Assembly (NCBI RefSeq): GCF_039654945.1
Contig: NW_027361899.1
Coordinates: 13,392,001 to 13,456,000 of the forward strand
Length of the DNA stretch: 64,000 nucleotides
From: Dendrobates tinctorius
Taxonomy: Eukaryota
Direction: 5' to 3'
Shown: piece after piece, positions 17,815-62,090 of the stretch
How the letters are laid out: each line of letters starts with the position of its first letter
Numbering within the stretch: position 1 is the first letter of the stretch
Position numbers and translations under genes: made by a program
The notes under the pieces: model-generated
Database searches by the model: none
Seen by the model: the letters and a program-made list of their open reading frames with translations, nothing else
Told to the model about the DNA's origin: nothing

Positions 17815-19424
<1,610 letters not shown>

Positions 19425-26029: not shown

Positions 26030-26064
<35 letters not shown>

Positions 26065-29382: not shown

Positions 29383-29464
<82 letters not shown>

Positions 29465-33955: not shown

Positions 33956-33999
<44 letters not shown>

Positions 34000-36900: not shown

Positions 36901-39715
36901 TAGGACCTGACAGGAGACACACACATCTCTCCTGATAATTTGCTACAATGTATCAGTGCAGGGAAATGAGCAGAGTGAGTTTGTGTTCTAATGGGGGTTT
37001 TTTTTGTTTTGTTTTTTAGCTCACAAAAAGATTACAAGGACACCCTAACAAGTGAGTAGACTCACCCATCCTGCTCCATGAACCCGATCGGCACACACCT
37101 CTCCTGAAATACTCTGTGCTGCTGTGCATCCTGCTCCATCCACACGATCAGCACACACCTCTCTTGAAATACTCTGCTGCTGTGCATCCTGCTCCATCCA
37201 CACGATCAGCACACCTCTCCTGAAATACTCTGTGCTGCAGAGCACCCTGCTCCATCCACACGATCAGCACACACCTCTCCTGAAATACACTCTGCTGCAG
37301 AGCACCCTGCTCCATCCACACGATCAGCACACACCTCTCCTGAAATACTCTGTGCTGCTGTGCATCCTGCTCCATCCACACGATCGGCACACACCTCTCC
37401 TGAAATACTCTGTGCTGCTGTGCATCCTACTCTATCCACACGATCAGCACACACATCTCCTGAAATGCTGTGCATCCTGCTTCATCCACACGATCGGCAC
37501 ATACCTCCTGAAATACTCTGTGCTGCTGTGCATCCTGCTCCATCCACACGATCAGCGCACACCTCTCCTGAAATACTGTGCTGCTGTGCATCCTGCTCCA
37601 TCCACACGATCGGCACACACCTCTCCTGAAATACTCTGTGCTGATGTGCATCCTACTCCATCCACACGATCAGCACACACATCTCCTGAAATGCTGTGCA
37701 TCCTGCTTCAGCCACACGATCGGCACATACCTCCTGAAATACTGTGCTGCTGTGCATCCTGCTCCATCCACACGATCAGCACACACCTCTCCTGAAATAC
37801 TGTGCTGCTGTGCATCCTGCTCCATCCACACGATCGGCACACACCTCTCCTGAAATACTCTGTGCTGATGTGCATCCTACTCCATCCACACGATCAGCAC
37901 ACACATCTCTTGAAATGCTGTGCATCCTGCTTCAGCCACACGGTCAGCACACACATCTCCTGAAATGCTGTGCATCCTGCTTCAGCCACACGATCAGCAC
38001 ACACATCTCCTGAAATGCTGTGCATCCTGCTTCATCCACACGATCGGCACATACCTCCTGAAATACTCTGTGCTGCTGTGCATCCTGCTCCATCCACACG
38101 ATCAGCACACACCTCTCCTGAAATACTCTGTGCTGCTGTGCATCCTGCTCCATCCACACGATCAGCACACACCTCTCCTGAAATACTCTGTGCTGCTGTG
38201 CATCCTACTCCATCCACACGATCAGCACACACATCTCCTGAAATGCTGTGCATCCTGCTTCATCCACACGATCGGCACATACCTCCTGAAATACTCTGTG
38301 CTGCTGTGCATCCTGCTCCATCCACATGATCAGCACACACCTCTCCTGAAATACTCTGTGCTGCTGTGCATCCTACTCCATCCACACGATCAGCACACAC
38401 ATCTCCTGAAATGCTGTGCATCCTGCTTCAGCCACACGATCAGCACACACATCTCCTGAAATGCGGTGAATCCTGCTTCATCCACATGATCAGCACACAC
38501 CTCTCCTGAAATACTCTGTGCTGCTGTGCATCCTGCTCCATCCACATGATCAGCACACACCACTCCTGAAATACTCTGTGCTGCTGTGTATCCTGCTCCA
38601 TCCACATGATCAGCACACACCTCTCCTGAAATACTCTGCGCAGCTGTGGTGCTCTGACTTCTTTATGCCTCTGCTCTGACGCCGTCCTCTTCTTTCTGCA
38701 GTGCCATACTGATGGTGCGCTGGCTGAAGGCTGTCCTGGTGCATCACGCCTCCTACCTGTCCACGGTAAGTTTGGCGCCTCCTGGTGGCCGCTGGATCTG
38801 TGATTTTCTTCTTTTCCCCGCTGGTCCTGACATCTCTGCTTTCTTGCAGCTGCCGGATTTGGTGCCGCAGTTGGGCGCCCTGTATCAGCTGATGGAGATG
38901 CGGGTGAAGACCCTGCAGAAGATGTCACGTCTGAGCGGGAAGCTTTACCTGCTCATCACACAGGTCAGCGCTCCCGGGGTGGCTGCTCACAGGGCACGGA
39001 CCCCAAGAGCCGGGTTATAAGAGAAGCCTCTGGGGTGGGGGGGCCACGAGGATCTGTCCTTAATGAGGGGCACTACTGTCCACTCTGAAATGGCTGGTAA
39101 CAAAGTAATAGTTTTCTCTGGTCTTTCATGCTCCATGATATAGCTATCTATATCATGGCCGGGGGGGGGGGGAGGTGGGGCACCGTACAGCCTGCACCTG
39201 AGTGTTTAACCCCTTCAGTGCTGCAGGCAGTCACTAAATCAGGGGTATTAGGGTGTGTGCACACGCTGCGGATTCTGCTGCGGTTCCGCAGCGGATTTGG
39301 CCTTGCGGATCCGTAGCAGTTTTTGCTGCGGTGTACAGTACCATTATTCCCTATGGGAAATAGAAACCGCAGTGCAGATGCTGCGGAATTTTCCGCGGTT
39401 TCTAAACCGCAGAAAGAATTGACATGTCAATTCTTTCTGCGGATTCCGCAGCAGTCTACCATCTCCTCCATTGTGGAGATGATAAACCGCAGGGAAAAAC
39501 TGCAGGATAAACCGCAGGTCTTTTGACCTGTGGATTTAGCTGCGGATTTTGAAAATCCGCGTGGATCAATCCGCAGCAGATTCCGCAGCGTGTGCACACA
39601 CCCTTAACGTACAGGACTCGGAACCAAAAAAAAGTGTTTTTCTTTTTTTTTTTGCTAAGTTTGGTGCTACCGTTTTCATACTGACCAAGAATCGTCTATT
39701 TGTTTTTATTTGCAA

Positions 39716-39746
<31 letters not shown>

Positions 39747-41337
39747 CTGGTTTCAGCACATTTTGTGCTACTATAAATAGTGGCGTTAAAAAATTATAAC
39801 TCGTCCCACAAAGAACAAGTCCTTTTACAGATACAGGCACCTGGAGTAACAAGGTTATGGCTCTTTAAAAAGAGGAAACATACAAAACATTGAGAGCTGG
39901 GGGTCCGCAGGTTTCGGGGGCTCCTCTGCAGAACTCCTGCCTGTGATGACATGAAGAGAACGGTTTCGCATCTCGCCTGACGTGCAGTGATGTGGTCTCT
40001 TGGCTGTCTGAGTGCAGTCTGCAGCGGGTGGGGGGCACAGGATTAAGTCCCTGGGATTGGGCTGCGGCGGCGCTTGATCCTACAAGCTGCCTCTTCCTTA
40101 CGTTGCAATACTCTTGTCTTTCCACCAGGTGTCAGCAGTTGAGATCTCGCAGAGGATAAAGGCCAATCAGGAGGCCAAGGTGGTGTACGAAGAAGGTGGG
40201 AACTGAACACTTAACTGCTCACGTGTGCACTTCGGAGGACCCCTTTAACATAGAACATGTGACACTTATTTTTTGCTTGTGTCAAGTTAGTTTGCTACAT
40301 GTGTAATCTTCCCTCCTGGACTATACAGCCTGATAAAATGTAGCAAAGCATCAGAATGGTGGAGAGGGGTGTTCAGACTGTAACAGACCCTCAGCTGCGC
40401 ACAGCATAGGTCTGTACAGGTGTGCAGCCTCTGGATGGGCATAAAAATGGTCACAAACAGCAGGCAGATATGGTGACAAAGTTTTATTAAAAGTTGTAGA
40501 ACTTTGTCATCTGATAAAGCTTGATCGCAGAGATCCCCTCCCGGCAGCGTTACGTTAGTGACTACGGGGCAGCAGCTGTCGATTATTATTGGTCGGACTT
40601 AGGTGTGAGGACTCTGATTTTTCCGTTTTTAGTTAAATCTGCTTTTATGGTGCAAGCAATTATTAAAGGGGGTCCTCTGTGTGCAACCTGCATATTTGGG
40701 GGGCGAGGTTCCCATTTCTAATCTTAATGTTCCTTTCTTTTTGCCCTGGGATTAAAGATCAAGTTTTTTTTCTTGCAGAATCGTCAGGCGAGGAGTCCGG
40801 TGATGAGGATCACAACATAGACTCTGATGTAAGTACCAGACGATGATAGCGGTCAGCTACCACTGACTAATTGCTGCGGTGGCGGTAACCTAGGTAGTGA
40901 TCAATAAAGTATAGAATTAAAATTCCCTTAGTTCTTTAACGGAGAGGACTTTTAATAAACATTATACAATAACCATTTAAGGTTCAACAAGTGACATTGA
41001 GGAGTTAAACTAAGTTTTGTGGGGACATTCTGATTTTCTAGGTGAAATCTATATTGTGCAGTTCTATATTTTAACCACTAGGTGGCAATGTTGTGCTACC
41101 GTTCAGTTTGCAGCAGTGACACCTGGTGGTGAATTCAGTAAGTGCAGTTTTCTGTTCTATTACTATATAAATGAAGTAACAGCCAGATTATTTTTTTTCT
41201 TTTAGGAGAACTGGGAAGAAGGTGACGAGGAAGCGGAGACAGAGGAATCTGAAGAGGAGGATCCGGAAGAGATGAATGTGGACAAAGTTGATGGAGATTC
41301 AGACGCCGACCTTGGGAATGAAAGTGAAGAAGAATAA
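21236..41337 (+). CDS. WDR43: WD repeat-containing protein 43 (UTP5; SSU processome UTP-A), complete 18-exon CDS, 1974 nt / 657 aa
   Basis: join(21236-21445,25179-25313,26128-26249,26737-26857,27101-27240,27917-28019,29021-29085,29481-29652,30037-30123,30626-30760,31434-31571,31650-31736,37020-37051,38702-38765,38850-38963,40129-40195,40779-40828,41206-41337). All GT-AG, phases consistent, open frame; WD40 repeats, Utp12-like domain ([10 protein letters not shown]...[13 protein letters not shown]), acidic tail. Confidence 0.96.
21690..22570. repeat. GC/G-rich minisatellite, 40-45-bp unit (intron 1)
   Basis: GAGCACGGCGGCGTCATCCAGCCCCGGTTGCGGGA(G)n, about 20 copies. Confidence 0.95.
25179..25313 (+). 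CDS. WDR43: WDR43 exon 2
   Basis: [12 protein letters not shown]...[17 protein letters not shown]. Confidence 0.93.
25410..25975. repeat. 41-bp minisatellite (intron 2), followed by (GATA)n/(TA)n at ~26005-26070
   Basis: AGGCGCCATCATCCTCAGTCTCTGGCCTGTGTTTGTGTACA repeats. Confidence 0.95.
26128..26249 (+). CDS. WDR43: WDR43 exon 3
   Basis: [32 protein letters not shown]. Confidence 0.93.
26540..26618 (+). ncRNA. SNORD53: Box C/D snoRNA, SNORD53-like (intron 3)
   Basis: C GTGATGA 26545-51, TGGTTTCGCT, D' CTGA, guide CTCTTGGCTGT, D CTGA 26610-13; guide complements 28S ACAGCCAAG. Confidence 0.88.
26737..26857 (+). CDS. WDR43: WDR43 exon 4
   Basis: [32 protein letters not shown]. Confidence 0.93.
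27101..27240 (+). CDS. WDR43: WDR43 exon 5
   Basis: [14 protein letters not shown]...[16 protein letters not shown]. Confidence 0.93.
27917..28019 (+). CDS. WDR43: WDR43 exon 6
   Basis: [26 protein letters not shown]. Confidence 0.92.
28240..28975. repeat. 35-36-bp satellite (intron 6)
   Basis: TATAACTACTATAATACTGCCCCTATGTACAAGAA. Confidence 0.96.
29021..29085 (+). CDS. WDR43: WDR43 exon 7
   Basis: [22 protein letters not shown]. Confidence 0.92.
29253..29346 (+). ncRNA. SNORD92: Box C/D snoRNA, SNORD92-like (intron 7)
   Basis: C 29263-69, AATATGTGGTTTC, guide TTCCTTGGCTGTGT, D 29334-37, terminal stem GGCAGC/GCTGCC; the 2-nt longer guide shifts the target to the A in CAC[A]GCC. Confidence 0.9.
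29385..29460. repeat. (AT)n microsatellite
   Basis: Directly visible. Confidence 0.97.
29481..29652 (+). CDS. WDR43: WDR43 exon 8
   Basis: [16 protein letters not shown]...[12 protein letters not shown]...QPLIEKV. Confidence 0.92.
30037..30123 (+). CDS. WDR43: WDR43 exon 9
   Basis: [15 protein letters not shown]...VTK. Confidence 0.92.
30360..30450 (+). ncRNA. SNORD53: Box C/D snoRNA, SNORD53-like (intron 9)
   Basis: C 30370-76, GGTTTCGC, D' CTGA, C' GTGATGT, guide CTCTTGGCTGT, D 30437-40, stem CAGACT/AGTCTG. Confidence 0.88.
30626..30760 (+). CDS. WDR43: WDR43 exon 10
   Basis: VKTPVV...LVPGIPGH...KRKPGDKE. Confidence 0.92.
30955..31240. repeat. ~70-90-bp tandem repeat, ~4 copies (intron 10)
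   Basis: CCAGAGCTGCACTCACTATTCTGCTGGTGCAGTCACTG...TACATTACTGATCCTG. Confidence 0.9.
31262..31337 (+). ncRNA. SNORD53: Box C/D snoRNA, SNORD53-like (intron 10)
   Basis: C 31268-74, TGGTTTCGCT, C' GTGACGA, guide CTCTTGGCTGT, D 31328-31. Confidence 0.87.
31434..31571 (+). CDS. WDR43: WDR43 exon 11
   Basis: [13 protein letters not shown]...[22 protein letters not shown]. Confidence 0.93.
31650..31736 (+). CDS. WDR43: WDR43 exon 12
   Basis: [29 protein letters not shown]. Confidence 0.92.
32090..33915. repeat. G/GT-rich compound minisatellite (intron 12)
   Basis: GCCGTTATGC(TG)n(G)n units with stepwise variant turnover. Confidence 0.96.
34009..36875. mobile_element. Non-autonomous hAT-type element with giant internal palindrome
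   Basis: 8-bp TSD GAGACGAC (34001-34008, 36876-36883); TIR TAG(T/A)GTTGAGC; subterminal CCGATAC repeats; symmetry centre at 35591; two N gaps. Confidence 0.88.
37020..37051 (+). CDS. WDR43: WDR43 exon 13 (32 nt)
   Basis: [10 protein letters not shown]; tttag acceptor, gtgagt donor; restores frame with exon 14. Confidence 0.9.
37060..38640. repeat. ~50-60-bp minisatellite filling intron 13
   Basis: CATCCTGCTCCATCCACACGATCAGCACACACCTCTCCTGAAATACTCTGTGCTGCTGTG. Confidence 0.95.
38702..38765 (+). CDS. WDR43: WDR43 exon 14
   Basis: [21 protein letters not shown]. Confidence 0.92.
38850..38963 (+). CDS. WDR43: WDR43 exon 15
   Basis: [38 protein letters not shown]. Confidence 0.93.
39251..39603. 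mobile_element. Harbinger-type MITE (intron 15)
   Basis: TTA TSDs; perfect TIR GGGTGTGTGCACACGCTGCGGA. Confidence 0.88.
39937..40017 (+). ncRNA. SNORD53: Box C/D snoRNA, SNORD53-like (intron 15)
   Basis: C 39943-49, GGTTTCGC, D' CTGA, C' GTGATGT, guide CTCTTGGCTGT, D 40008-11. Confidence 0.87.
40129..40195 (+). CDS. WDR43: WDR43 exon 16
   Basis: VSAVEIS...AKVVYEE. Confidence 0.9.
40779..40828 (+). CDS. WDR43: WDR43 exon 17
   Basis: [16 protein letters not shown]; gtaagt donor. Confidence 0.88.
41057..41088 (+). promoter_or_regulatory. CTCF-like motif in the last WDR43 intron
   Basis: CCACTAGGTGGCA (41075-41087) with TGCAG 13 nt upstream. Confidence 0.5.
41206..41337 (+). CDS. WDR43: WDR43 exon 18, coding part
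   Basis: ENWEEGDEE...DLGNESEEE*. Confidence 0.92.
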   Translation, partial: ENWEEGDEEAETEESEEEDPEEMNVDKVDGDSDADLGNESEEE

Positions 41338-45053: not shown

Positions 45054-46267
45054 AGCAAACCGGTAGCGCGATCTCGCAGAGCATTGTCTGCACTGATCTG
45101 CAGACTTACTGGATACGATTGGGAGCCGCGATGTTTTCTTTCACTCTCTCCAAGCAATTGAATACTCACGTTTGCTTTTCTTTTTCTGCCTCCTCGTTTT
45201 CGTTGCCTTTATTTTTTGCACCAAAGCGGCCGCGCTGCTGCACGAGGTTCATGAATTTTGCATAAAATAAAACCTGCCTTTATTTTTTACTCATGCGTTT
45301 CACAAATTGGCACCAGAAATATCTTGCTCCCGTCCAGTCCCTGCGAGGCGCCTGCTGGGCAAACTTTCAATACATTTACGTCAAATTTTGCGACTTTAAG
45401 ACGTCACATTTGACGAATCTGTCGAACACTAGAATAAAAAAGGAGCAAATGAAATAATAAATCGTCCGGAAGAGTTTTAGAAACTTTGAGAACTTTTTAT
45501 TTCTAGAATGATAAACTTTTTATATTCCACCAAATCCTCAGAACTCGAGCCTCCCATCTTTACCTCCTTACTGATGGTTTCCCAACAGTAATAAAAACAA
45601 ACCTGAATATTTCTGGGTTTTTATACAGTGGTTCCACAATAACAGCGTCCTGGTTTCATATGCTGTGGATTCTTGTCGCCTGTCGCTCTGTTACCTGACC
45701 GGAATGTGAACAATATTAACTATTAACAGACTGTACGGGATAATTACCGAACCCATCCACCCGCAGCTTCCCAAAAAAGCCCCCCATCAGCGGTGACCCA
45801 TGGGCTAACATGGCAGCCATTCATGTTCAGAGTCTGTTATACAACTGGTTAATACTCGACTCATTCTTCCTCTTCTGCTCTTGTTGGCCGAGGGGGGTCG
45901 TGAGATGATTAAAGATGATTTACAGCCATGGGAACAGTTGTCAGGGCCAACACCGAAATAACTAGACCCCCGGACTGCTGATGGGAATATTAATGCCCTG
46001 TTTATAACATCTACAGAATAGAGGGGCACTTGTGCCTGAGCGTGGACAAGTGGGGGAGCCGAGATCAGATCCCGGGGCGACGCGAGACCACGAAGCTGCT
46101 ACAAGTGGTCGCCGTACAATGCTGGGAATCAGGTCAGTGCTCGATGCAGATGTGACACCGGGTATATACTGCTCATATATAGAAAACAAAACATTTACTG
46201 CTCGAGAGGACTGAGAAACTTCATAGAGAAACAAAGTAGGATGTACAGGAGGTTACATTGTATGCAC

Positions 46268-48913
46268 AAGAATATAACTTCTATAATACTGCCCCTATGT
46301 ACAAGAATATAACTACTATAATACTGCTATGTACAAGAATATAACTACTATAATACTGCCCCCTATGTACAAGAATATAACTACTATAATACTGCTCCTA
46401 TGTACAGGAATATAACTACTATAATACAGCCCCTATGTACAAGAATATAACTACTATAATACTGCCCCTATGTACAAGAATATAGCTACTATAATACTGC
46501 CCCTATGTACAGGAATATAACTACTATAATACTGCCCCTATGTACAAGACTATAACTACTATAATACTGCTCCTATGTACAAGAATACAACTACTATAAT
46601 ACTGCCCCTATGTACAAGGATATAGCTACTATAATACTGCCGCTATGTACAAGAATATAACTACTATAATACTGCTCCTAGATACAAGAATATAACTACT
46701 ATAATACTGCTCCTAGATACAAGAATATAACTACTATAATACTGCCCCCTATGTACAAGAATATAACTGCTATAATACTGACCCCTATGTACAAGAATAT
46801 AACAACTATAATACTGCCCCCTATGTACAAGAATATAGCTACTATAATACTGCCCCTATGTACAAGAATATAGCTACTATAATACAGCCCCTATGTACAA
46901 GAATATAACTACTATAATACTGCCCCTATGTACAAGAATATAGCTACTATAATACTGCCCCTATGTACAGGAATATAACTACTATAATACTGCCCCTATG
47001 TACAAGACTATAACTACTATAATACTGCTCCTATGTACAAGAATACAACTACTATAATACTGCCCCTATGTACAAGGATATAGCTACTATAATACTGCCG
47101 CTATGTACAAGAATATAACTACTATAATACTGCTCCTATGTACAGGAATATAACTACTATTATACTGCCCCTATGTACAAGGATATAGCTACTATAATAC
47201 TGCCGCTATGTACAAGAATATAACTACTATAATACTGCTCCTATGTACAGGAATATAACTACTATTATACTGCTCCTGTGTACAAGAATATAACTACTAG
47301 AATACTGCCCCCTATGTACAAGAATATAACTACTATAATACTGCCCCTATGTACAAGAATATAACTACTATAATACTTCTATGTACAAGAGTATAACTAC
47401 TATAATACTGCTCCTATGTACAAGAATATAACTACTATATTACTGCGCCTATGTACAAGAATATAACTACTATAATACTGCCCTTATGTACAAGAATATA
47501 ACTACTATAATACTGCCCCCTATGTACAAGAATATAACTCCTATATTACTGCGCCTATGTACAAGAATATAACTACTATAATACTGCCCTTATGTACAAG
47601 AATATAACTACTATAATACTGCCCCTATGTACAAGAATATAACTACTATAATACTGCTCCTATGTACAAGAATATAACTACTATATTACTGCGCCTATGT
47701 ACAAGAATATAACTACTATAATACTGCCCTTATGTACAAGAATATAACTACTATAATAATGCCCTTATGTACAAGAATATAACTAATATAATACTGCTCC
47801 TATGTACAAGAATATAACTACTATAATACTGCCCCCTATGTACAAGAATATAACTACTATAATACTTCTCCTATGTACAAGAATATAACAACTATAATAC
47901 TGCTCCCTATTTACAAGAATATAACTACTATAATACTGCCCCTATGTGCAAGAATATAACTACTATAATACTGCCCCTATGTACAAGAATATAACTACTA
48001 TAATACTGCCCCTATGTACAAGAATATAGCTACTATAATACTGCCCTTATGTACAAGACTATAACTACTATAATACTGCCCCTATGTACAAGAATATAAC
48101 TACTATAATACTGCCCCCTATGTACAAGAATATAACTACTATAATACTGCCCCTATGTACAAGAATATAACTACTATAATACTGCCCCCTATGTACAAGA
48201 ATATAACTACTATAATACTGCCCCTATGCGCAAGAATATAACTACTATAATACTGCTCCTATGTACAAGAATATAACTACTATAATACTGCTCCCTATGT
48301 ACAAGACTATAACTACTATAATACTGCCCCTATGTGCAAGAATATAACTACTATAATACTGCCCCTATGTACAAGAATATAACTACTATAATACTGCTAT
48401 GTACAAGACTATAACTATTATAATACTGCCCTTATGTACAAGAATATAACTACTATAATACTGCTCCTATGTACAAGAATATAACTACTATAGTACTGCT
48501 CCTCTGTACAAGAATATAACTACTATAATACTGCTCCTATGTACAAGAATATAACTACTATAATACTGCTCCTATGTACAAGAATATAACTACTATAATA
48601 CTGCTCCTCTGTACAAGAATATAACTACTATAATACTGCCCTTATGTACAAGAATATAACTACTATAATACTGCTCCTATGTACAAGAATATAACTACTA
48701 TAATACTGCCCCCTATGTACAAGAATATAACTACTATAATACTTCTCCTATGTACAAGAATATAACAACTATAATACTGCTCCTATGTACAAGAATATAA
48801 CTACTATAATACTGCCCCCTATGTACAAGAATATAACTACTATAAAACCGCTCCTATGTACAGGAATATAGCTACTATAATACTGCTCCTATGTACAAGA
48901 ATATAACTACTAT
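46268..48913. repeat. 35-36-bp satellite array, left part
   Basis: Same unit as 28240-28975. Confidence 0.97.
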
Positions 48914-51455
48914 TGTAATGTAAAATGTCTATAAAGTATGATGTTTCTAGAAATCTCCCATTTCACACTACTGAGGACATTGTCCACTGTCAGCTGGCAG
49001 CACTTCCCCCTCCCTTACAGCCCCCTCCTTCTGCCCCTTTTAGCAGCTGTCTATGTGTGTGCTTTTTGCCGGCATCTGAAACCTGATACCGGGCATTTCC
49101 TCTCGAAGCACAGCTAGGGGGAAAAGCAGCTTACCAATCTCTAATTTTCATAATCCTAATCCCTCCAGAACCTGAGATATGGATTGCTCCCAAACGGAGT
49201 GTCCTAAGTATGGCATGCTTGGTGTCGTCGGATTCTATTCGGTAAATCACAAACAATGATGCCCTATGTGTGTTGGTACGGGCTTTTCTCGTTTAGATAT
49301 AGTTATTCTAAGTTTTGTGGCCAAATCCTAACTTGGAGAGAGGGAGGTTGTACCTCTCCAGACCGCCCATTTCGTGAGGTCAAAGACCCTAGGCTATAGG
49401 TATTCCCTACCAAATTCCAGTCAGTTCAGCTGGAGTCCTCCTGCCAGAGAGACGTGCCGATGAGTGGGGACGTTTGGTTAACCGCCCCTCCCCCAGCCAC
49501 ATGGTCTGTCTAATACCAACTACGCACACGTGAATGTTACTTTCTGTTCTTTCATCCACTTTGTTTTATATTTGTATTTGTACATATGTAATGTCTCACT
49601 TTATTACAACTTTTGTATTTGTAATCTGCCTGATTTGGGGAATAAATCGTAAAATTATCAGTTTGACTCCATGCTCTAAGAAACGAACTATGCGCCTTTT
49701 TTAGATAATCGCTACTAATTTGGGGTCTTAATTAACTCTTTGATTAAGTAAAGCGTGGCTGGTGGCAGCGTGGTGTGCATGGCTGGCTAAGCTAGCTGGC
49801 AGTACAGACGGGTCTTACATGCTGAATGAGGGGCTGCGGCCACAGCATTGATAATTCCCTTACTGCAGTAGTCTAGCGGCCCGTGCACAGCAAGCAGCCC
49901 GTCCGACGACTAATTATCCTTGGTGCAGTTCCCAGACTGACCTGAGGGTAAGGGGTGCGCCGGAGAGCTGTGAGTTCCAAAGTGGAACTGAGAAAGTGGG
50001 ATATACAGAAATCCCCGCAGTTCTTGGAAGGTTGTTAGCAATGGTGGGGCATCCAAAATACCCCCCTGCGGTAAATTATTAGAGCAAGATTAGCTTGCTG
50101 TATTTTGTCACGTGGTGCCAGTGGTGGGATAACTAAGATAAGCCCCACTGTGCCTGTGATAGCCGTGTGCCGGCAGTGCATCGCGTCCCTCCGTCCGCTG
50201 ACAAACCCGTGTCGGTGGTGGGATCGTGACGTATTGGTGGCACAGGGTCAGCTGTCCGTCACAATTTGGCGGCAGCGGTGGGCCCGTTCGTCACATATTG
50301 GTGGCAGAGCGGTGGGATAATCCTAGAGCATTAGTGATTTGGTTTGAGCAATCATTCCTCTCACTAAAAACGTGCACGGTTCCTGCGGATATCCTGCATC
50401 ATAGGTTTTGGAGAACAGACTCAGTGGTTACTAGTCCTAAGACATTTTTGTGTACTTGCAAGTATTCCCTCCCTTTCTCTTCGTTTTTCTTTTCTATCTT
50501 TTATTTGGCAACCATGGCGGCAAAAGGAGAACACTGGTACAGACAGCAGAAAAAAGAAAACCTTGCTTCAGTATGCACGTACCGATACGTTGACGCCACA
50601 AACAAAACCAGAGACCAACTGATCGCGGCTCTGGTGCTGCTGGACAACGACCAGAGCCCAGCGGACGCAGAAGCTGGCCCAAGTGGCAATGGGGCTGCAG
50701 CAGAGGCTCCACTCCTGAACGCTGGCCCCACATTCAACCATAGCGGGCTGGACCCCTACCTGCAAGCGGCCTTGGACGCACTCCCCGCCGAAGACAGTGA
50801 AGGACGGGTGAGGCTGATCCAGCAATATCGGCAGGAGGCCCAAGCCGAAAGAGAGGCTGAGAGATCCGAGCGCCAGGCGCAGAAGACCCATGAACTGGAG
50901 GTGCTCCAGCGGGGGGGGGAATGCCCCCACAGCCCGAAGCAGTGAGCCCAGCAGCGTCCAGACTTCTAAACCCCGGCCAGAGCATTTTCCCGTGATGGAA
51001 AAAGACGGGGACTTGGACACGTTTCTGCGAGCCTTTGAGAAAGCCTGCCGACAGTACCGGCTGGATAAGGTCCAATGGGCCAGGGCTAAAAAGCAAAGCT
51101 CTGGAGGCGTTTGCTTTTCTCCCGTCAGAAGACGACGATGACTATGATGCCATAAAGCAGGCTCTGATCGCCAAATACCGGCTGACACCTGAGGTATACC
51201 GAAGTACTTGGACGACATCGCCATCTTCAGTTCCACCTGGGAGGAACACCTTCAGCATCTCCAGGAGGTGCTCAAGCGTCTTCACCAGGCAGGCCTGACT
51301 ATCAAGCCGGGAAAGTGCCAGATGGGCATGAGCTAGGTCCACTACCTGGGGCACCGGGTAGGCGGGGTTCCATGAGTCCGGAGCCAGAAAAGGTAGACAT
51401 AATCGCATCCTGGCCCACCCCCAGGACCAAGAAACAGGTGAAGTCCTTCTTGGGC
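48914..51455 (+). mobile_element. Gmr1-type Gypsy LTR retrotransposon, left half (LTR, leader, partial gag, RT fragment)
   Basis: Starts TGTAATG; tRNA-Leu-like PBS; gag from 50514 (MAAKGEHWY...DLDTFLRAFEK); jumps at ~51204 to [19 protein letters not shown]...HYLGH. Confidence 0.85.
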
Positions 51456-51484
51456 TGGAGAGTTGCACAGGGCTGCTTTCAAAG

Positions 51485-54400
51485 CAGGTGGAACTGAAGA
51501 TGGCGATGCCGTCCAAGTACGCCACTGCGTACTCCTCTTGTCCCCGGAGCAGGTGGTTGATCATCCGCTGGAAAGTGGCAGGGGCATTTTTCATGCCGAA
51601 GGGCATGACTGTGGACTCGTACAGTCCAAAGGGGGTGATAAAGGCGGATTTCTCCTGCGCCTCATAATCTGCCAGTATCCCAGACTCAGATCCATGATGG
51701 ATATGTACCTTGCTTTTGCCAACCGCTCAAGCAGATCCTCGATGCGCGGCATCGGGTGGGCATCAGAGGTTGTGACGGCGTTGAACCCCCTATAATCCAC
51801 GCAGAACCGGGTGGTTCGATCCTTTTTAGGCACGAGGACTACAGGTGAGGCCCACGTGCTTTTGGACCGTCGAATCACCCCCAGCCTTAACATCTCCTCG
51901 ATCTCTTGGCGCATGACTTGTTGCACTGCCTCAGAGATCTGATAAGGTGTTCGCCGTAGTGGGGCGTGATTCCCGGTGTCCACCTCATGAACCGCTAACT
52001 CCGTCCTCCCAGGTCGGTTGGTGAACACGGCCCGGAAGGGTTCCAGGGCTTCCACCAACTGCGACCGCTGGGATACGGTTAGCAAACCACTTATCTCCAT
52101 GTCCTCAATGGACCCTTTGGCCTTGGCTTGGGCCAGCATGTCCAGGAGGGGATCTTCCTCCCCATCCTCGGGCAGGTTGCAGACCGGTAGGACGCAAGCT
52201 TCACGTTCGTGGTGCGTCTTCAGCATGTTGACGTGAAAGGCCTTGCGCCTACCCCGAGCATGGTCAAGCGTGACCACGTAGGTGACTGGGTTGAGTTGTT
52301 GGTGGACGACGTATGGGCCTTCCCAGGCTGCCTGAAGCTTATCCGTTGGTACGGGGACCAGCACCCACACCTTTTGACCCACCTGGTAGGTCTGCTCCCG
52401 GGTATTCTGGTCGTACCAGTGCTTCTGGTCAGCCTGAGCCTGCGTCATGTTGTCATGCACCAACTGCGTCAAGGTCTGCATCTTGTCACGGAAACGCATG
52501 ACATAATCCACAATGGACACTTCTGTGGGGTTTGGCTCATCTTCCCAGGATTCTCTTATCAACCCAAGGGGTCCCCGGACTCGCCTGCCATACAGGAGCT
52601 CGAAGGGGGAGAACCCGGTCGAGGCCTGCGGAACTTCTCTGTAAGCGAACAGCAGGTGTGGGAGGTACCGCTCCCAGTCGCGCCCTTGGGTCTCAACCAG
52701 CATGCGGAGCATCTGTTTGAGGGTACCGTTGAAGCGTTCACACAAACCATTAGTCTGTGGGTGATACGCACTCGATACCTGGTGCTTCACCTGAATTCTC
52801 TTACAGAGAGCCTCCACTAGGCGAGACATGAATTGGGTCCCTTGATCGGTAAGCATCTCCCTGGGAAATCCTACCCTCGAAAACATGGTCACCAGTGCGT
52901 CAGCCACCTTATCTGTCCTGGTTGAAGACAGAGCTACTGCCTCTGGGTACCGGGTAGCATAGTCTACCACGGTGAGAATGTATCGCTTTCCAGAGCTGCT
53001 GGGGACGGCCAGCGGGCCTACAATGTCCACCATGATTCTCTGGAAAGGCTCCTCTATCACCAGCAAAGGAATAAGGGGAGCCTTAAGAGCAGGCCCCGCC
53101 TTACCCACTTTTTTGACAGGTGTTACAGGTGCGGCAGTATTGTGTTACCTCTGTCCCCATCTTGGGCCAAGAGAAGTGTTGAGACAGCCGTGCCTTTGTT
53201 TTGCTGATCCCCAAGTGTCCAGCGAGTGGAATCTCATGGGCAATCTGCAACAACTCAGTCCTGAACTGTAGGGGGACGACTAGCTGTCTTTCCCTCAACC
53301 ACTCTTTTTGGGAATCTCCGGGTACTGTCTCCCGGTACAACCTTCCTCGTTCCAAGAACACCCTCTCCTTATCAGGCTCGGAGGTGGGCGTCTCGGCGAG
53401 GTGTCTCAATTTCTCCAGGCTTGCATCTCAGTGCAGAGCTGCCTGGAACTCCTTGCTGGAGGCTGCCAGAAGCGACATCAGGGTTCCTTCCTTACTGGGA
53501 CCCTCTGGAACCTGCTCTGGGTTCACCTCTGGTTCAGTCTCTCCTGTAGCAGAAGAGGGTCCAGAAGACAGGGCGCTACCTGCGATCTGGGCACTCTGAC
53601 TGCGTGTGACAGCTGCTATGTATGCTGTCTCCCTGAGGATTTCTACAGACCCACCAATCGGTGCTGCTATGGGCCCTACTTCCCCATCCACCCCCAACAC
53701 TTCAGGAGCAGTGCTACTTATGAGCCAGTTACCTTCCTCGGTGGCACTGGTCAGTTGCATGGCATTACCTTCCTCATGGTCCCCATGCACTTACCCATTT
53801 CCTTGAGCACCGTTGCTCGTTCCTGCCAGGGGTTCCTCAGCCGTCTCACTCCGCAGAGTGACGGGGCTGAGCACTTCGGTACCTGTGGACACATCTATCG
53901 TTTCAAAGAAATGGTTAACAGGTTCAGTCGGCACAGATACATCATCATCATCATCATCACCACTCCTAGGGAAAGAATGGTTATCGGATTTCTTTGGTAC
54001 ATTTACAACACCATCAGCATCATTCCTGGGGAGAGAATGGTTGTTAGTTGCATCATTACTCATCAAGGCATTAGCAGGTAACACATTCAGTTTCCCATCA
54101 TCATCATCAACACCAGGGTTAACGTTACCCTTATTATCAGATTGGGGAAGGGTGTCAGGGACGTAGTATGCAACCATCCTTCCCAAGTCAGTCCCCAATA
54201 AAACAACAGTGGGCAGGTTTTCAGACACTCCCACTTCCCTCACCCCGTTCCCAGCACCCCAATCAAGAAAAACCCGGGCCACTCGCAAGGGACAGCGGGT
54301 ACCCCCGATCCCGGTGACAGTCAGGGTTTTCCCCTCAACAAACTCTTCAGGGGCCGCCAGTCCAGGACACATGAGGGTTCGTTCAGCCCCGGTGTCCTTG

Positions 54401-57282
54401 AGGCCTGTAGCAAGACGGGCCCCCACCTGGACGGGTTGAACGTTGTCGTCAATCCTCCCAACCACACCTCCCACCAAAAGAACAGAGTTGTTGGGCCCAG
54501 AGGCCTTCGCTGGGGGGTTCTTCGGCTTTTCCGCACAGGTGTAACTGAGGTGACCAGGCCGCTTGCAGTGGAAACACAGGCGACTGTCAGTAGCAGGCCT
54601 GGTGTTGGCAACAGGGAGAAATGGCTAGCTGGGGCACTGGGGTTGGTTGCAGGCTTACCCCCTCTCCAGCTGGTGGTGACTGGCCTCCGCGTCTCTGGCT
54701 TCCAGTTGGCCTCGTAGTTGTCGGCGATCTGCACCGCTTTGTCCGCGTTCGTTGGTTCGCGGTCCAGGATCAACTGTCGCACCTCAGCTGGGCAAAGATG
54801 CAGGAACTGGTCTTTGATCATCAGGTCCCGTAGCTGCTCAAAGGAATCAGCGGACAGTCCATGGATCCACTGGTCAAATTCCTTGCACCACATCATTATA
54901 GCTATCGTGTGGGCCACGTTGGAGGTTCCGGAACTTCTTTCGGTATACCTCAGGTGTCAGCCGGTATTTGGCGATCAGTGCCTGCTTGATGGCATCATAG
55001 TCGTCGTCTTCTGACGGCAGAGAAGCAAACGCCTCCAGAGCTTTGCATTTTAGCCCTGAGGTCAAGTACCTGGCCCATTGGACCTTATCCAGCCGGTACT
55101 GTCGGCAGGCTTTCTCAAAGGCTCGCAGAAATGTGTCCAAATCCCTGTCCTTTTCCATCACAGGAAAATGCTCTGGCCGGGGTTTAGGAGTTTGGACGCT
55201 GCTGGGATCACTGCTTCAGGCTATGAGGGCATTCCACCCCCGCTGGAGCATCTCCAGTTCATGGGCCCTCTGAGCTTTTCGTTCAGCCTCTCTTTCGGCT
55301 CGGGCCTCCTACCGATATTGCTCTATCAGCCTCACCCGTCCTTCACTGTCTTCGGCAGGGAGTGCGTCCAAGGCTGCTTGCAGGTAGAGGTCCAGCCCGC
55401 TCTGGTTGAATGTGGGGCCAGCGCTAAGGAGTGGAGCCTCTGCTGCAGCCCCATTGTCACTTGGGCCAGCTTCTGCGCCCGCTGGACTCTGGGTGTTGTA
55501 CAGCTGCACCAGAGCTGCGATCAATTGATCTCTGGTTTTGCTTGTGGCGTCAATGTCTTGGTACGTGCATACTGCAGCAAGGTTTTCCTTTTGCCGCCAT
55601 GGTTGCCAAATAAAAGATAGGAAAGAAAAATGGAGAGAAAGGGAGGGAATACTTGCAAGTACACAAAAATGTCTCAGGACTAGTAACCACTGAGTCTGTT
55701 CTCCAAAACCTGTGATGCAGGATTCCCGCAGGAACCGTGCAGGTTTTTAGTGAAAGGAATGATTACTCAAACCAAATCACTAATCACCGCTGGCACCAAT
55801 ATGTGAGGAACGGGCGGATTGCTTTCGCCAAATTGCGACGGACAGCGGACCCTGTGCCACCAACAGGTCACGATCCCACCACCGATACGGGTTTGTCAGC
55901 GGACGGAGGGACGTGACGCACTGCCGGCACACGGCTATCACAGGCACAGTGGGGCTTATCTTAGTTATCCCAACACTGGTACCATGTGACAAAAACACAG
56001 CAAGCTTGCTCTAACAATTTATTGCAGGGGGGTATTTTGGTTGCCCCGCCACTGCTAACAACCTTCCAAGAACTGCGGGGATTTATGTATATCCCACTTT
56101 CTCAGTTCCACTTTGGAACTCGCAGCTCTCCGGTGCCCCCTTACCCTCAGGTCAGTCAGGGAACTGCACCTAGGATAATTAGTCGCCGGACGGGCTGCTT
56201 GTTGTGCACGGGCAATTAGACTACTGCAGTACTGGAATTATCAATGCTGTGGCCTCAACCACTCATTCAGCAATATAAGACCCTTCTGTACTGCCAGCTA
56301 GCCTCGTCAGCCACGCACACCACGCTGCCACCAGCTCCTGGTTTCTCCACTTAAGTTATAGACTTAATGGAGGGGTTCGAAGCCAACCCGATCAGTAGCG
56401 TAATTATCTAAAATAGATTTTATCATTTATTCCCAAAAGAATGCGGGCAGTGATTACATAGATAAAAGTTGCTATAAAGTTGAGACATTACATATGTACA
56501 ATACAAATATAACATAAAGGGGATTAAAAAGACAGAAAGTAACACATGTGCTTAGTCAGTATCAGGCAGTCCATGTGGCTGGGGAGAGAAGGCGGAGCCA
56601 CACGTCTCCACTCATCTGGGTTCTGGTCGGCACGGACGCTGTAGCTCCCACTGACTCATTGTAAGGGAGGGGTGCCTTATAGCCCAGGGTCTGTGACATC
56701 ACGAAAGGGGCAGTCTGCATAAGTTCATCCCCCCTTTTTCCATGTTGCCAATTAACTAAAAAACTTATGATAACCATATCTCAACGAGGGAAGCTCGTAT
56801 CAACACACTGAGGGCCTCATAGGTTGTAGTTCATCAAATGTAATAAAGCAACATCAGACATGACATACTTAGGACACTCCGTTTGGGAGCAATCCATATC
56901 TCAGGTTCTGGCGGTGATAGAACTTTGCAAGAGCCACCGTAGGGAAGCCGAGTCCGCGCAGATCACAGAACTGTCCGTTTCGTTTTTCTGTCGTGTTCGG
57001 AGCCCATGCTAGCCTATTTTAATATCTCTCATAGGTTTATTTCAGACACATGTCCCAGAAAACAAAGGACTTCCTTTAGCTTAACTAATTAACATTCCTT
57101 TCTGTGGAGATGGGCCAAATGCTATAGGGGAAGAGTCCTATTACCAGTGCAGACACAAGCTGTTAAGGAGGGGGAAGGAGGTAAGCTGTAGGAGCTGACA
57201 GGCTGAATTTCTCATCAGAGTGAAGTGGGAGATTTCTAGAAGGTTCTAGAAACATCATACTTTATAGACATTTTACATTACA
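51485..57282 (-). mobile_element. Gmr1-type Gypsy LTR retrotransposon, right half (LTR, gag with SCAN-like domain, protease, integrase, RT up to YLDG)
   Basis: Protease LKDTGAE; HHCC zinc finger (AHEIPLAGHLG...CNTC); DDE core (MVDIVGP, LTDQGTQF, GLCERFN); GPY; then RT ([27 protein letters not shown]). Order PR-INT-RT; several frameshifts. Confidence 0.92.
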
Positions 57283-59597
57283 AAGAATACAGCTACTATA
57301 ATACTGCCCCTATGTACAAGAATATAATTACTATAATTCTGCCCCTATGTACAGGAATATAACTACTATAATACTGCTCCTATGTACAAGAATATAACTA
57401 CTATAATACTGCCCCCTATGTACAAGAATATAACTACTAAATACTGCTCCTATGTACAAGAATATAACTACTATAATACTGCCCCCTATGTACAAGAATA
57501 TAACTACTATAATACTGCCCCTATGTACAAGAATATAGCTACTATATTTCTGCCCCTATATACAAGAATATAACTACTATAATACTGCTCCTATGTACAA
57601 GAATATAACTACTATAATACAGCTCCTATGTACAAGAATATAACTACTATAATACTGCCCCTATGTACAAGAATATAACTACTATATTTCTGCCCCTATA
57701 TACAAGAATATAACTACTATAATACTGCCCCTATATACAAGAATATAACTACTATAATACTACCCCTATGTAAAAGAATATAACTACTATAATACTGCCC
57801 CTATGTACAAGAATATCACTACTATAATACTGCTCCTATATACAAGAATATAACTACTATAATACTGCTCCTATGTACAAGAATATAACTACTATAATAC
57901 TGCCCCCTATGTACAAGAATATAACTACTATAATACTGCCCCCTATGTACAAGAATATAACTACTATAATACTGCCCCTATGTACAAGAATATCACTACT
58001 ATAATACTGCTCCTATATGCAAGAATATAACTACTATAATACTGCCCCTATGTACAGGAATATAACTACTATAATACTGTTCCTATGTACAAGAATATAA
58101 CTACTATAATACTGCCCCTATGTACAAGAATATAACTACTATATTTCTGCCCCTATATACAAGAATATAACTACTATAATACTGCCCCACTGTACAAGAA
58201 TATAACTACTATAATACTGCCCCCTATGTACAAGAATATAACTACTATAATACTGCCCCCTATGTACAAGAATATAACTACTATAATACTGCCCCTATGT
58301 ACAAGAATATCACTACTATAATACTGCTCCTATATACAAGAATATAACTACTATAATACTGCCCCTATGTACAGGAATATAACTACTATAATACTGCTCC
58401 TATGTACAAGAATATAACTACTATAATACTGCCCCTATGTACAAGAATATAACTACTATAATACTGCCCCCTATGTACAAGAATATAACTACTATAATAC
58501 TGCCCCTATGTACAAGAATATAACTACTATAATACTGCTCCTATATACAAGAATATAACTACTATAATACTGCCCCTATGTACAGGAATATAACTACTAT
58601 AATACTGCTCCTATGTACAAGAATATAACTACTATAATACTGCCCCCTATGTACAAGAATATAACTACTATAATACTGCCCCCTATGTACAAGAATATAA
58701 CTACTATAATACTGCCCCCTATGTACAAGAATATTACTACTATAATACTGCCCCCTATGTACAAGAATATAACTACTATAATACTGCCCCTATGTACAGG
58801 AATATAACTACTATAATACTGCCCCTATGTACAAGAATATAACTACTATATTTCTGCCCCTATATACAAGAATATAACTACTATTATACTACTCCAATGT
58901 ACAAGAATATAACTACTATAATACTGCCCCTATGTACAAGAATATAACTACTATAATACTGCCCCTATGTACAAGAATATAACTACTATAATACTGCCCC
59001 TATGTACAAGAATATAACTACTATATTTCTGCCCCTTATACAAGAATATAACTACTATAATACTGCTCCTATGTACAAGAATATAACTACTATAATACTG
59101 CCCCCTATGTACAAGAATATAACTACTATAATACTGCCCCTATGTACAAGAATATCACTACTATAATACTGCTCCTATATACAAGAATATAACTACTATA
59201 ATACTGCTCCTATGTACAAGAATATAACTACTATAATACTGCCCCCTATGTACAAGAATATAACTACTATAATACTGCCCCCTATGTACAAGAATATAAC
59301 TACTATAATACTGCCCCTATGTACAAGAATATAACTACTATAATACTGCTCCTATGTACAAGAATATAACTACTATAATACTGCCCCTATGTACAAGAAT
59401 ATAACTACTATAATACTGCTCCTATGTACAAGAATATAACTACTATAATACTGCTCCTATGTACAAGAATATAACTACTATAATACTGCTCCTATGTACA
59501 AGAATGTAACTACTATAATACTGCCCCTATGTACAAGAATATAACTACTATAATACTGCTCCTATGTACAAGAATATAACTACTATAATACTGCCCC
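57283..59597. repeat. 35-36-bp satellite array, right part
   Basis: Same unit and orientation as the left array. Confidence 0.97.
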
Positions 59598-60124
59598 TCA
59601 TGAGTAATACTGCTTAGCAGTTGAAACACGTCGACTGGGTCATGTCGACCATGAACATTTTCATTTGTACGCACTATATTTTGCTTTGAAAAATAAAAAT
59701 AAAAGTAAAATCCAGTCCTGTTGAGCCAGACTCCAATTTTTTCTATTATATTTTTGATGTGTGGTAGTCTTCTTTTCCGCCCTTTTCCCTTTCTGTGCAA
59801 ATTATTTTTATCATTGTAATTAAATAAAATTTATTCTTCTCACTTAATTTGGGTTTTAAACCCTGTGTCTTTCTTTGTTCAGGGTTTTGCTGGTGACTGA
59901 TGTTGATATTTGCACCTTTTGTTCTTCCACAAGTCGATTATTGTGTTTTACAAGTCATCGATCAATAATCGTCTGCACCGTCCGACTGATCCATTCTGTT
60001 TCCAAGTCATTATTTGTCTTTTGGGAATGACTAGAAACCTATTACCTGTTATGTGCATGAAGTGACACGTACGTTACACTACCTTATTGATATAACCTGG
60101 GCATCTTCTGTATATAATTGTAAA

Positions 60125-62090
60125 CAATGCCTTGAAAAAGTATTCATACTCCGTGAACTTTTTCACATTACACCCACAAAAGTAAATGTATTTTATTGGG
60201 ATTTTATGTGATATCAACACAAAGCAGCAAATATTTGTGAAATGAAAAGGAAATGATACAGGGGTTTCTAATTATTTTAAGAATATAAATTTGACAGTTG
60301 TGAGGTGCATTAGTATTCAGCCCCCTGTGAAGTCTGTTACCCCTAAGTAAAATCCTGAGAGACCAATTGTCTCCATAAGTCACATAATCGGCACCTTAAT
60401 TCTATCTGGGTGTGATTTGTTTTTGGTATAACTACCACTGGTCTGTGATGGCCTCAGAGGTTAGTGTGAGAACATTAGTGATCAAACAGCATTACGAAAA
60501 CCAAGGAGCTCACCAGACATGTCAGGGATAAAGTTGTGGACAAGAGTAAAACATGGTTAGTTTATTAAAAAATTAGCCCAAGATCTGAACATCTCACAGA
60601 GCTCTCTTTAATCCATCATCCAAAAATTGGAGGAGTTTGGCACAACTGCAAAGCTACCAAGACATGGCCGTCCACCTACACTGACATCCCGAGAGGAGAC
60701 CACAAATTGGAGAAGCAGCCAAGAGGTCCATGGTCACTGGAGGAGCTGCAGTGATCCACAGCTCAGGGGGGAGAATCTGTCCACAGGAAAACGATTAGTT
60801 GCTGTCACGGGGTCCTTCTCTGGTATCACACAATCAACAGAGCAAGAGGAGAGTGAACAATTCCAAGACATTTATTTAGGCAAAAATATGAAAAGTCCAT
60901 ATTCAGTCCACCACACAAAGGATAGATAGTCCAGAATCTGAATGCAGTTCAGTAACAGTATAACATGTCCAGGGAGATGAGAGTCCAAAATCCAGCTGAC
61001 AGTGGATAACATGTTCCATATATTCTTCTTTCTCTCAGAAGTCCTGTCTTCACACCATGCTCTGCACACAGCAACTGACTTGTCCAGCCCCTATCCTCCC
61101 CAGCCCCCCTCATTATGTCCAGGGAGTCAAAACAGGTTGGGGGCCAGTCTTCAGGCCTCCCAGACTTGACAAAAGGTGCCTGGGGGATTATGACACTACA
61201 GGGGGTCATCAAGAGTCATAGATAAAAGTCAGGCTGCAGACATACAAGGCATCAAGATTAACACTATGCAAATCAGTGAAATAGCAATATACACAAAATG
61301 ATATCCATATAGCATATCACACCATCACAGTTGCATACTCCACAAATTTGGTCTTTATGGAAGAACAGCAAGAAGAGAAATATTTTTTGAAAGCCATAAG
61401 AAGTCCCGTTTGCAGTTTGTAAAAAGCCATGTAGGGGACACAGCAAGCATGTGGAAGAAGTTGCTCTGGTCAGATGAGACCAAAGGGGAACATTCTGGAC
61501 AAAATAAAAAAAAGCTATGTGTGGCGGAAAACTAACACTAACCATCACCCTGAAAACACCATCCCCTCCATCACACATGGTGGTGGCAGTATCCTGCTGT
61601 GGGGAGACCTTACTTTACCCAGGACAGGGAAGCTGGTCAGAGGTGATAGGCAGATGGATGGAACTAAATGCAGGGCATTCCTGGTGGACAACCTATTAGA
61701 GGCTGCAAAAGTCTTGAGACTGGGGCATAGGTTCACTTTCCAGCAGGACAACGACCCTAATCATCCTGCCAGAGCTACAGTGAAGGGTTTAGCTCCGAGC
61801 ATATTCCTGTGTGTGAACGGCCCAGTCACAGTCCAGACCCGAATCCCAGAGAATCTGTGACAAGACTCGAAAATTGCTGATCACAGACGTCTCCATCCAA
61901 TGTCACTGAGCCAGATTTATATCATTAATATATTTAGAAAATATTCTGCCATTCCCCTTACACGTCACTAATACTTGTTACTTCGTGTTGAGATCACAGA
62001 AAGTCCCAATAGAATGCATTTAAATTTGTGGACGGAACGCGAAAAAATGTGGAAAAGTTCACGGGGTATGAAGACTTTTTCTCGACGCTG
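60125..62090 (+). mobile_element. Decayed Tc1-like transposon
   Basis: Diverged TIRs (CAATGCCTTGAAAAAGTATTCATAC / GTATGAAGACTTTTTCTCGACGCTG-TA); LPRHGRP, LWSDET, HGGGSILLWG, FQQDNDPNH. Confidence 0.88.
60803..61329 (-). mobile_element. Solo LTR inserted in the Tc1
   Basis: TGTCAC...ATCACA termini, 5-bp TSD GTTGC; AATAAA on the minus strand at ~60871-60876. Confidence 0.85.

Follow-up and report, generated by a model that had tools for sequence, protein, structure and literature searches.

The unit at positions 48914-57282 of the window, a 64,000-nucleotide stretch of the Dendrobates tinctorius genome, most probably (we put the probability at roughly 0.7) consists of the 5' halves of two Gmr1-like LTR retrotransposon copies that converge within a 35-bp satellite, had inserted independently and were fused by one break-repair deletion. 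The unit is probably defunct and unique to this locus rather than the representative of a new type of mobile element. An earlier note on this DNA had proposed, as the simplest reading, that related subfamilies inserted in opposite directions and that a deletion then joined the two insertions; this is supported by the distinct subfamilies of the two arms, by insertions of the family in both orientations, by joints that are unique in the genome and by the TSDs of ordinary family members.

Architecture of the unit and its family

Self-alignment bears out two converging arms, each with LTR, PBS and gag, in inverted orientation (Table 1). Over 49162-51203 versus 56914-54939 the inverted alignment reaches 81.7% with gaps counted, and 1907 of 2154 columns are identical in the whole-arm alignment (88.5% alike). 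The alternation of shared and divergent LTR blocks described before is seen on the alignment, with substitutions of 18.6% in the mid-LTR, 8.6% in U5 and 7.3% in leader plus gag. The leader does occur twice, but much of what had been called leader is U5, and each LTR measures about 1.4-1.5 kb. Likewise, the 39-bp termini (starts at 48914 and 57282) are exact reverse complements as noted, but they represent the conserved U3 start of the family: the first 34 bp have 90 exact matches genome-wide, and of 30 such matches examined 26 have all 39 bp. The match ends at 39 bp because the left LTR carries a 10-bp deletion. The reading frames of the unit are broken and neither a PPT nor a 3' LTR is present. 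Since the PPT and the sense-strand 3' R/U3 are missing, normal reverse transcription is precluded and the unit is an immobile fossil.

Table 1. Features of the unit and its flanking arrays in window coordinates.
Feature	Position	Strand	Remarks
Left 35-bp satellite array	46261..48913	+	~76 units; final 5-mer is the target ACTAT
Left-copy 5' LTR	48914..50295	+	'left-type' U3/mid block; two private deletions (10 bp and ~115 bp); predicted at motif level: TATA-like 49395, AATAAA 49641; several decayed PBS-like units in U5
PBS, left copy	50299..50318	+	complements tRNA-Leu 3' end, 2-nt bulge
Left-copy leader and 5' gag	50319..51203	+	ATG 50514; 143 open codons, then out of frame; ends at joint J1
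Piece B, 252-bp RT stretch	51204..51455	+	flipped
Piece C, 31-bp pol fragment	51455..51485	-	
Right-copy pol	51485..53424	-	integrase, then N-terminal RT part; right copy lacks RNase H, PPT and 3' LTR
RT N-terminal part, right copy	51833-51663	-	PF00078, weak
Integrase C-terminal domain, right copy	52319-52218	-	PF22938
Integrase core, right copy	53051-52758	-	PF00665
Integrase zinc finger, right copy	53277-53107	-	PF17921
Right-copy gag and protease-like region	53425..55600	-	spread over several frames; gag ATG 55600, frame lost past 16 codons
Protease-like DTG motif	near 54400	-	motif alone; no Pfam match
SCAN, right-copy gag	54884-54705	-	PF02023, 27.5 bits (cut-off 27)
Right-copy leader and damaged PBS	55601..55801	-	PBS with substitutions and a 17-bp deletion
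Right-copy 5' LTR	55802..57282	-	'right-type' U3/mid block; hairpin with 9-bp stem at U3 nt 31-50
Right 35-bp satellite array	57283..59598	+	~66 units; first 5-mer is the target AAGAA

The previous label 'Gypsy' can be made more precise as Gmr1-like (Ty3/Gypsy-related), an assignment resting on the domain order gag/SCAN-PR-IN-RT: on the minus strand, three integrase domains lie ahead of RT and gag contains a SCAN-type capsid domain. The available text of a preprint gives the order SCAN-protease-integrase-RT for Gmr1-like elements (bioRxiv 10.1101/2025.03.03.638093), and SCAN-bearing Gmr1 elements of frogs are reported in the accessible part of PMC4131045; the accessible part of PMC2836005 makes no mention of Gmr1. 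The family comprises thousands of copies (4299 first-look candidates), among which internally deleted ones are common. Ordinary relatives have direct LTRs of about 1.5 kb, 5-bp TSDs and a tRNA-Leu PBS, and a PPT precedes 11 of 30 LTR starts. Nine LTR pairs were analysed for TSDs, of which five were resolvable (three exact, two with one mismatch). Automatic pairing of 32 LTR pairs yielded a TSD matching at 5/5 positions in 17 cases and at 4/5 in three; 12 had none, including five that run off the end of the locus and others of which only some were inspected. No description of stacked or multiple PBS units was found in the papers searched, including the accessible text of PMC10886601, and a search of the window for tRNA genes found none.

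As a whole, the unit has neither the direct LTRs nor the single 5-bp TSD of an intact provirus. Its flanks, ACTAT on the left and AAGAA on the right, agree at two of five positions, which confirms the reported absence of a TSD. ACTAT is an ordinary target with full TSD at another locus of the family (G000:C70:97.44 Mb).

Three joints between two LTR subfamilies

The junction previously located at 51200-51520 is present but consists of three joints instead of a single one, with 0 bp homology at J1 (51203/51204) and 1 bp each at J2 (51455) and J3 (51485). In intact copies, piece B directly follows the break point of the right arm; in the unit it is flipped, with a 36-bp overlap with the right arm in which 35 of 36 positions are identical. 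Piece C derives from a site that intact copies carry some 126 bp past B, and both sources are at most 410 bp from the right arm's break. If the breaks were independent, the chance that B starts at most 36 bp from this break would be about 1-2%. At only two informative sites among 49 copies, linked variants did not assign B to either arm, which weighs against the favoured explanation. For comparison, the accessible text of PMC12807874 gives a median of 184 bp for locally derived junction insertions, fewer than 5% of which overlap by at least 10 bp.

Genome-wide, J1 and J3 have one match each in 6.36 Gb at up to two mismatches. Such unique joints refute mobility as a unit, as the earlier note had itself stipulated, and one match per joint searched together with the missing PPT distinguishes the unit from LARD- or TRIM-like mobile derivatives. 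None of the contigs listed from seven public read runs bridges a joint, but these runs lack window-private alleles (e.g. at 50965) and so count neither for nor against the joints; of the 24 public read runs listed, none matched half of the words searched and none is an RNA run.

The two arms are different LTR subfamilies. Left-type and right-type LTRs both occur elsewhere as ordinary or solo copies, the arms fall into separate supported clades of the mid-LTR tree (99/94 and 100/100), and they group as sisters in none of three trees. A fold-back inverted duplication was rejected because the arms are only 88.5% alike and belong to different subfamilies, and because the satellite is not flipped, unlike at the C63 locus.

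Origin of the probable fusion

In the favoured reading, integrase would have acted at two separate targets, with the outer U3 end of the left copy joined to ACTAT and that of the right copy to AAGAA. Family U3 ends lie within the 35-bp satellite at 14 and 15 junctions for the two orientations, in many phases. Elsewhere, the family also forms opposite-strand nests, namely at C178 (TSD CCTCC), C295 and C70:98.78 Mb, the last of which lies in satellite and was nested and then deleted. A supposed convergent pair at C116 turned out to be two separate solo LTRs. The convergent pair may then have broken, plausibly by fork stalling at the long inverted repeats, and in its repair the left copy would have lost about 5.8 kb and the right copy about 2.3 kb, together with some host DNA between them. 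Template switching or end joining at the break of the right copy would have supplied B, in flipped orientation, and C, either copied or captured from the adjoining sequence. Several repair pathways are possible, and religated fragments do not typically overlap by 36 bp, which counts against this explanation. A further objection comes from L012, a copy with direct LTRs that lies in this satellite too and has no TSD, and thus demonstrates that TSD loss does occur there. With LTRs only 89% alike, L012 itself looks like a two-copy recombinant. The 12 automatic pairings without a TSD are a third objection. Its flanks (GAGAA/ACTAT) mirror those of the unit, but L012 was rejected as the reciprocal partner since its U3 type is unlike that of the left arm, its orientation does not fit and gene order is intact. 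In-register satellite turnover keeps phase and hence would not be expected to erase a TSD.

A stepwise origin, in which the left copy first lost gag to RT so that B is its own sequence, a second deletion joined the right copy and C was captured, seems unlikely to us. B does lie on the strand of the left arm and downstream of gag in element order, and internal deletions are common in the family. However, the left deletion end and the right break would have to coincide within 36 bp by the small chance given above, and C stems from the same 410-bp neighbourhood.

Very unlikely is an aberrant cDNA made in one particle from two subfamily RNAs by a sense/antisense switch near RT, which would have had two U3 ends, integrated as a single unit and later lost its TSD. 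The intact U3 termini at both ends agree with it and the 36-bp inverted overlap could represent snap-back or switch homology. But the absence of a TSD in a family that makes 5 bp speaks against the unit with two U3 ends that the earlier note had listed as an alternative, at least four template switches would be required, and an apparent 17-bp repeat across the unit is satellite phase with two mismatches. Rare monomer variants also differ between the arrays: the inner halves have none of their rare types (17 and 14) in common, while halves of single arrays, a weak control, have 1-3. The satellite does keep one orientation across the unit as noted, but this says little because all five arrays at 28-82 kb (window plus 30 kb downstream) lie on one strand. 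A shared mobile-element head or tail was looked for among the satellite arrays and not found.

The aberrant cDNA has a precedent in the relative G000:C163, which combines two U3 ends with a perfect 5-bp TSD (ACAGG), predicted ahead of any inspection of its far end, so that such a model is not absurd for the unit; still, this type of fold-back was found once in the genome, with one U3 type searched. C163 is probably a pre-integration product, for which we propose formation by snap-back at the U3 hairpin. A two-U3 unit thus appears to have been realised once elsewhere and not at the window locus. That the family makes and integrates two-U3 cDNAs, with the unit as a second, far larger, whole-integrated case that arose by sense/antisense switching between two RNAs packaged together and now acts as a hairpin-RNA locus against its own family, is likewise very unlikely. 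No relevant report on the integration of aberrant two-U3 proviruses or on inverted-LTR retrotransposons with a TSD was found among the mostly open-access papers searched.

An assembly misjoin of two copies in satellite-rich DNA is least credible: satellite does border both ends and the genome holds thousands of family copies, but joints with 0-1 bp homology and small templated pieces are unlike overlap misjoins, fold-back read chimeras would not show the 11% difference between the arms, the arrays extend over just 2.7 and 2.3 kb, and within a 20.9 Mb contig gene order is kept across the unit (WDR43-type on the plus, CLASP_N on the plus and Retinal/PCARE on the minus strand, which we take to be the vertebrate order).

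Possible hairpin RNA and comparison with known systems

Whatever its origin, the locus could now supply hairpin or antisense small RNAs directed against the family, which we consider unlikely. A single transcript could pair the arms over 19 perfect runs of at least 21 nt (633 nt in total), or 25 runs (925 nt) with G-U pairs and U3 included. It would need one LTR promoter, making convergent transcription unnecessary; both LTRs keep TATA-site variants known from other copies, and the final exon of a WDR43-like gene on the plus strand stops 7.6 kb upstream. Against this, the arms are as divergent as unrelated copies, with no sign of homogenisation or kept pairing, the loop would span about 3.7 kb and an AATAAA in each LTR could terminate the transcript early. 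Other inverted neighbours in the genome imply that the window locus is not special.

As read here, the unit matters little in itself, since an abundant old family has produced several such opposite-strand arrangements by accident. Its value lies in offering an inherited repair junction whose templated pieces are cleanly resolved, in a case that LTR finders would miss. Its importance would be greater if RNA showed that fusions of this kind become family-silencing hairpin loci. Retroelement specialists will find C163 more interesting: a natural two-U3 insertion with intact TSD would mean that this integrase can do without the U5 end.

DIRS1-type tyrosine-recombinase retrotransposons have inverted terminal repeats and no TSD, and in both respects the unit resembles them. 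In contrast to them, its integrase is of the DDE type, its ends are TG..CA, its relatives carry direct LTRs and its inversion is a one-off; in 10 frames scanned there was no match to a tyrosine recombinase, and an rve integrase was found instead. With Gmr1-like elements the unit's copies share the order of SCAN gag, protease motif, integrase and RT, but the unit differs from them in being a fusion of two 5' halves whose LTRs are inverted and in lacking RNase H, PPT, 3' LTR and TSD. In yeast, inverted Ty1/Ty2 pairs whose LTRs are separated by 21 bp and share about 95% identity are fragile sites, according to the accessible text of PMC12887534; there too, two related LTR elements point in opposite directions and undergo breakage and rearrangement, whereas in the unit only the repaired product is seen. 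Breakage-replication/fusion junctions, as far as the accessible text of PMC12807874 describes them, share with the unit short inserts whose source lies next to the breakpoint (252 and 31 bp in the unit). The unit differs from these junctions in that it is apparently inherited and not somatic, lies wholly inside retroelements and contains a 36-bp overlap of a kind that is rare there.

Structure and origin of the arms

The unit is a real feature and most likely an ordinary one. With a probability of roughly 0.7 it arose when a single complex deletion joined two Gmr1-like elements that had inserted independently; that two independent insertions were fused, in one event or stepwise, is very probable. 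Its termini form an exact 39-bp inverted match, and the converging arms are identical at 1907 of 2154 aligned columns, with shared blocks alternating with divergent ones as the earlier note had described. Its remarks on the flanks also stand: there is no TSD (ACTAT on the left vs AAGAA on the right), and the 35-bp satellite arrays on both sides lie on the same strand. The first 34 bp of the terminus have 90 exact matches in the 6.36-Gb assembly, and all 39 bp are present in 26 of 30 fetched matches. The terminal identity is thus the conserved U3 start of the family and stops at 39 bp, where the left LTR carries a private 10-bp deletion.

Relatives show direct LTRs of ~1.5 kb and a 5-bp TSD, in agreement with the provirus structure that the note took as normal; their PBS matches the 3' end of tRNA-Leu, and a PPT precedes 11 of 30 LTR starts. 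Checked by LTR pair, five of nine pairs were resolvable (three exact TSDs, two with one mismatch). The 32 automatic pairings, in which some rows repeat a single event, gave flank matches of 5/5 in 17, 4/5 in 3 and ≤3/5 in 12; five of these 12 are truncated at the end of the locus, and the others were inspected in part. Family insertions are old, since K2P between the paired LTRs lies at 0.033-0.052 in six intact copies. Reading frames are broken in both window arms, the PBS of the right arm is damaged, and no PPT was found across the whole unit.

The left LTR type recurs in ordinary copies (L059, L061, L069) and a solo LTR (L077); the right type likewise has ordinary copies (L062, L064, L072) and solo LTRs (L076, L078). 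The types form separate clades in a mid-LTR tree (45 rows; support 99/94 and 100/100), and trees of the U5 (47 rows) and of leader+gag (33 rows) do not place the arms as sisters, each tree omitting copies with too little coverage of its segment. Copy L060 joins a right-type U3 to a left-like middle; the alternating pattern is mosaicism across the whole family. Because the types fall apart in the trees and the blocks are mosaic family-wide, we reject the arms as an inverted duplicate of each other, and neither trees nor LTR block comparison gave a sign of homogenisation between them.

The U5 of both arms and of L059, L060 and L061 contains 3-5 stacked, decayed units resembling an LTR end plus tRNA-Leu PBS. 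Their number differs from copy to copy, as if the LTR grew through retained old primer-site copies; the 3' LTR of L064 terminates immediately after one such unit.

Central junction and gene order

Elsewhere, A (the RT start), B, ~126 bp and C (a pol fragment) are collinear, in the 39 other places among the 40 that were scored out of 4299 candidates. Starting at the right arm, the window instead has A extending 36 bp into B, then C (31 bp), inverted B (252 bp) and inverted left gag. Homology at the joints is 0 bp (J1), 1 bp (J2) and 1 bp (J3); with one natural copy as ruler, 5786 bp are missing from the left copy and 2338 bp from the right. A start of B within 36 bp of the end of A has a 1-2% chance if the breaks were independent, which favours a single event with local templates.

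Patterns across J1 and J3 each have one match in the assembly at ≤2 mismatches, which speaks against the mobility as one unit considered earlier. The strand transfers of normal reverse transcription need a PPT and a sense 3' R/U3; lacking both, the unit cannot complete them and, J1 and J3 being unique, is likely immobile. By computation, a read-through transcript could pair the arms (19 perfect runs of at least 21 nt, 633 nt in total, loop ~3.7 kb) and fold into a hairpin.

The unit lies 7.6 kb beyond the last stop of WDR43/Utp5-like exons; the Utp12-domain exon and acidic last exon are read as WDR43. Vertebrate gene order is WDR43-TOGARAM2-PCARE. With a weak CLASP_N match and a Retinal/PCARE match following, this order is kept across the unit, which indicates a local intergenic deletion rather than a large inversion or translocation. 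The opposite insertions of related subfamilies joined by a deletion, proposed in the earlier note, are supported by the subfamily split, two targets and the kept gene order.

Coordinates of the features (window positions unless a contig is named; window = G000:C231:13392001-13456000)
Feature	Position	Strand	Remark
Unit	48914-57282		left arm +, right arm -
Joints J1, J2, J3	51203/51204, 51455, 51485
U5 of the arms	49760-50295, 55802-56325
Satellite arrays	28230-28975, 46261-48913, 57283-59598, L073/L074	same
WDR43/Utp5-like exons	25152-41334	+	WD40, Utp12 matches
Utp12-domain exon	38703-38954
Acidic last exon	41206-41334
CLASP_N match	13.55 Mb of contig	+	weak, E 0.007
Retinal/PCARE match	13.59 Mb of contig	-
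Presumably L1-like endonuclease/RT frames	12871-17642		broken by presumed Tc1-like transposase remnant, 14969-15738
Presumed further Tc1-like remnants	18140-19204, 60612-61860
Presumably CR1-like RT	2300-3178
Opposite-strand neighbours	C178		nested, TSD CCTCC
Opposite-strand neighbours	C295		nested
Opposite-strand neighbours	C70:98.78 Mb		nested, with a later deletion; within satellite
Opposite-strand neighbours	C63:23622622-23629004 (L093, L094)		solo LTR + satellite flank duplicated inverted (satellite flipped), beside truncated 3' LTR
Direct-LTR copy L012	G000:C70:96136623-96146622
Repeated solo LTR	G000:C70:97441070-97452137 (L088, L089)		TSD ACTAT
Copy with two U3 ends	C163:8544937-8570909 (L067, L085, L121, L132)	-	TSD ACAGG
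Near-identical-looking LTR-internal-LTR(-internal-LTR) copies	G000:C163:8590396-8605218, G000:C295:704310-712200		another LTR subtype, inside larger insertions

Target sites and alternative origins

Family U3 ends border the satellite at many different phases, 14 of them facing one way and 15 the other; these counts take in the window's own two and some tandem duplicates. ACTAT is among the family's normal targets and forms full TSDs at C70:97.44 Mb. Rare monomer variants of the left array differ from those of the right, with one type in common (of 31 and 21); unrelated arrays share 0-3, a weak control. Opposite-strand family neighbours recur at four other loci, each of different build. However, the two-insertion reading in its simple form has to accommodate L012, which lies in the same satellite and lacks a TSD as well (GAGAA/ACTAT; LTRs 89% alike); this copy is probably a recombinant of two insertions.

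The satellite forms five separate arrays in ~54 kb without shared flanks. One solo LTR is seen three times within it and was therefore amplified together with the array.

Integration of the unit whole, as one molecule, is improbable. A product with two U3 ends, an alternative raised in the earlier note, seems to occur once, with a perfect 5-bp TSD, on C163, which raises its prior, but the window unit has no TSD. The C163 copy ends with PPT, U3 nt 1-50 and then U3 nt 1-30 reverse-complemented; in place of the 3' LTR stands an 80-bp hairpin made of the U3 start, whose turn lies at the U3 stem-loop. A 19-kb insertion, which has terminal inverted repeats of its own and an 8-bp TSD, interrupts the body of the copy, and the far end of the copy, 26 kb off, repeats the flank ACAGG as predicted beforehand. 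A genome-wide search for this U3 type gave a single match to the fold-back pattern. The simplest reading is a snap-back cDNA integrated through two U3 ends; a rival is a template switch after integration, using the shared ACA end. Mis-assembly of the unit is slightly less probable still, assembly accuracy resting here on internal arguments (junction, arrays and gene order).

For the fusion of two insertions, the inverted pair of copies may itself have triggered the break, as inverted Ty pairs act as break sites according to the part of PMC12887534 used here. The right arm shares its order, gag with SCAN, protease-like DTG motif, integrase and RT, with Gmr1-like elements as outlined in the relevant part of bioRxiv 10.1101/2025.03.03.638093, and an excerpt of PMC4131045 reports Gmr elements bearing SCAN in frogs. 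The central junction resembles those in the cited portion of PMC12807874 in its short pieces derived from beside the break and differs in its 36-bp overlap; as overlaps of at least 10 bp occur there in <5%, template switching is at least as good an explanation as religation.
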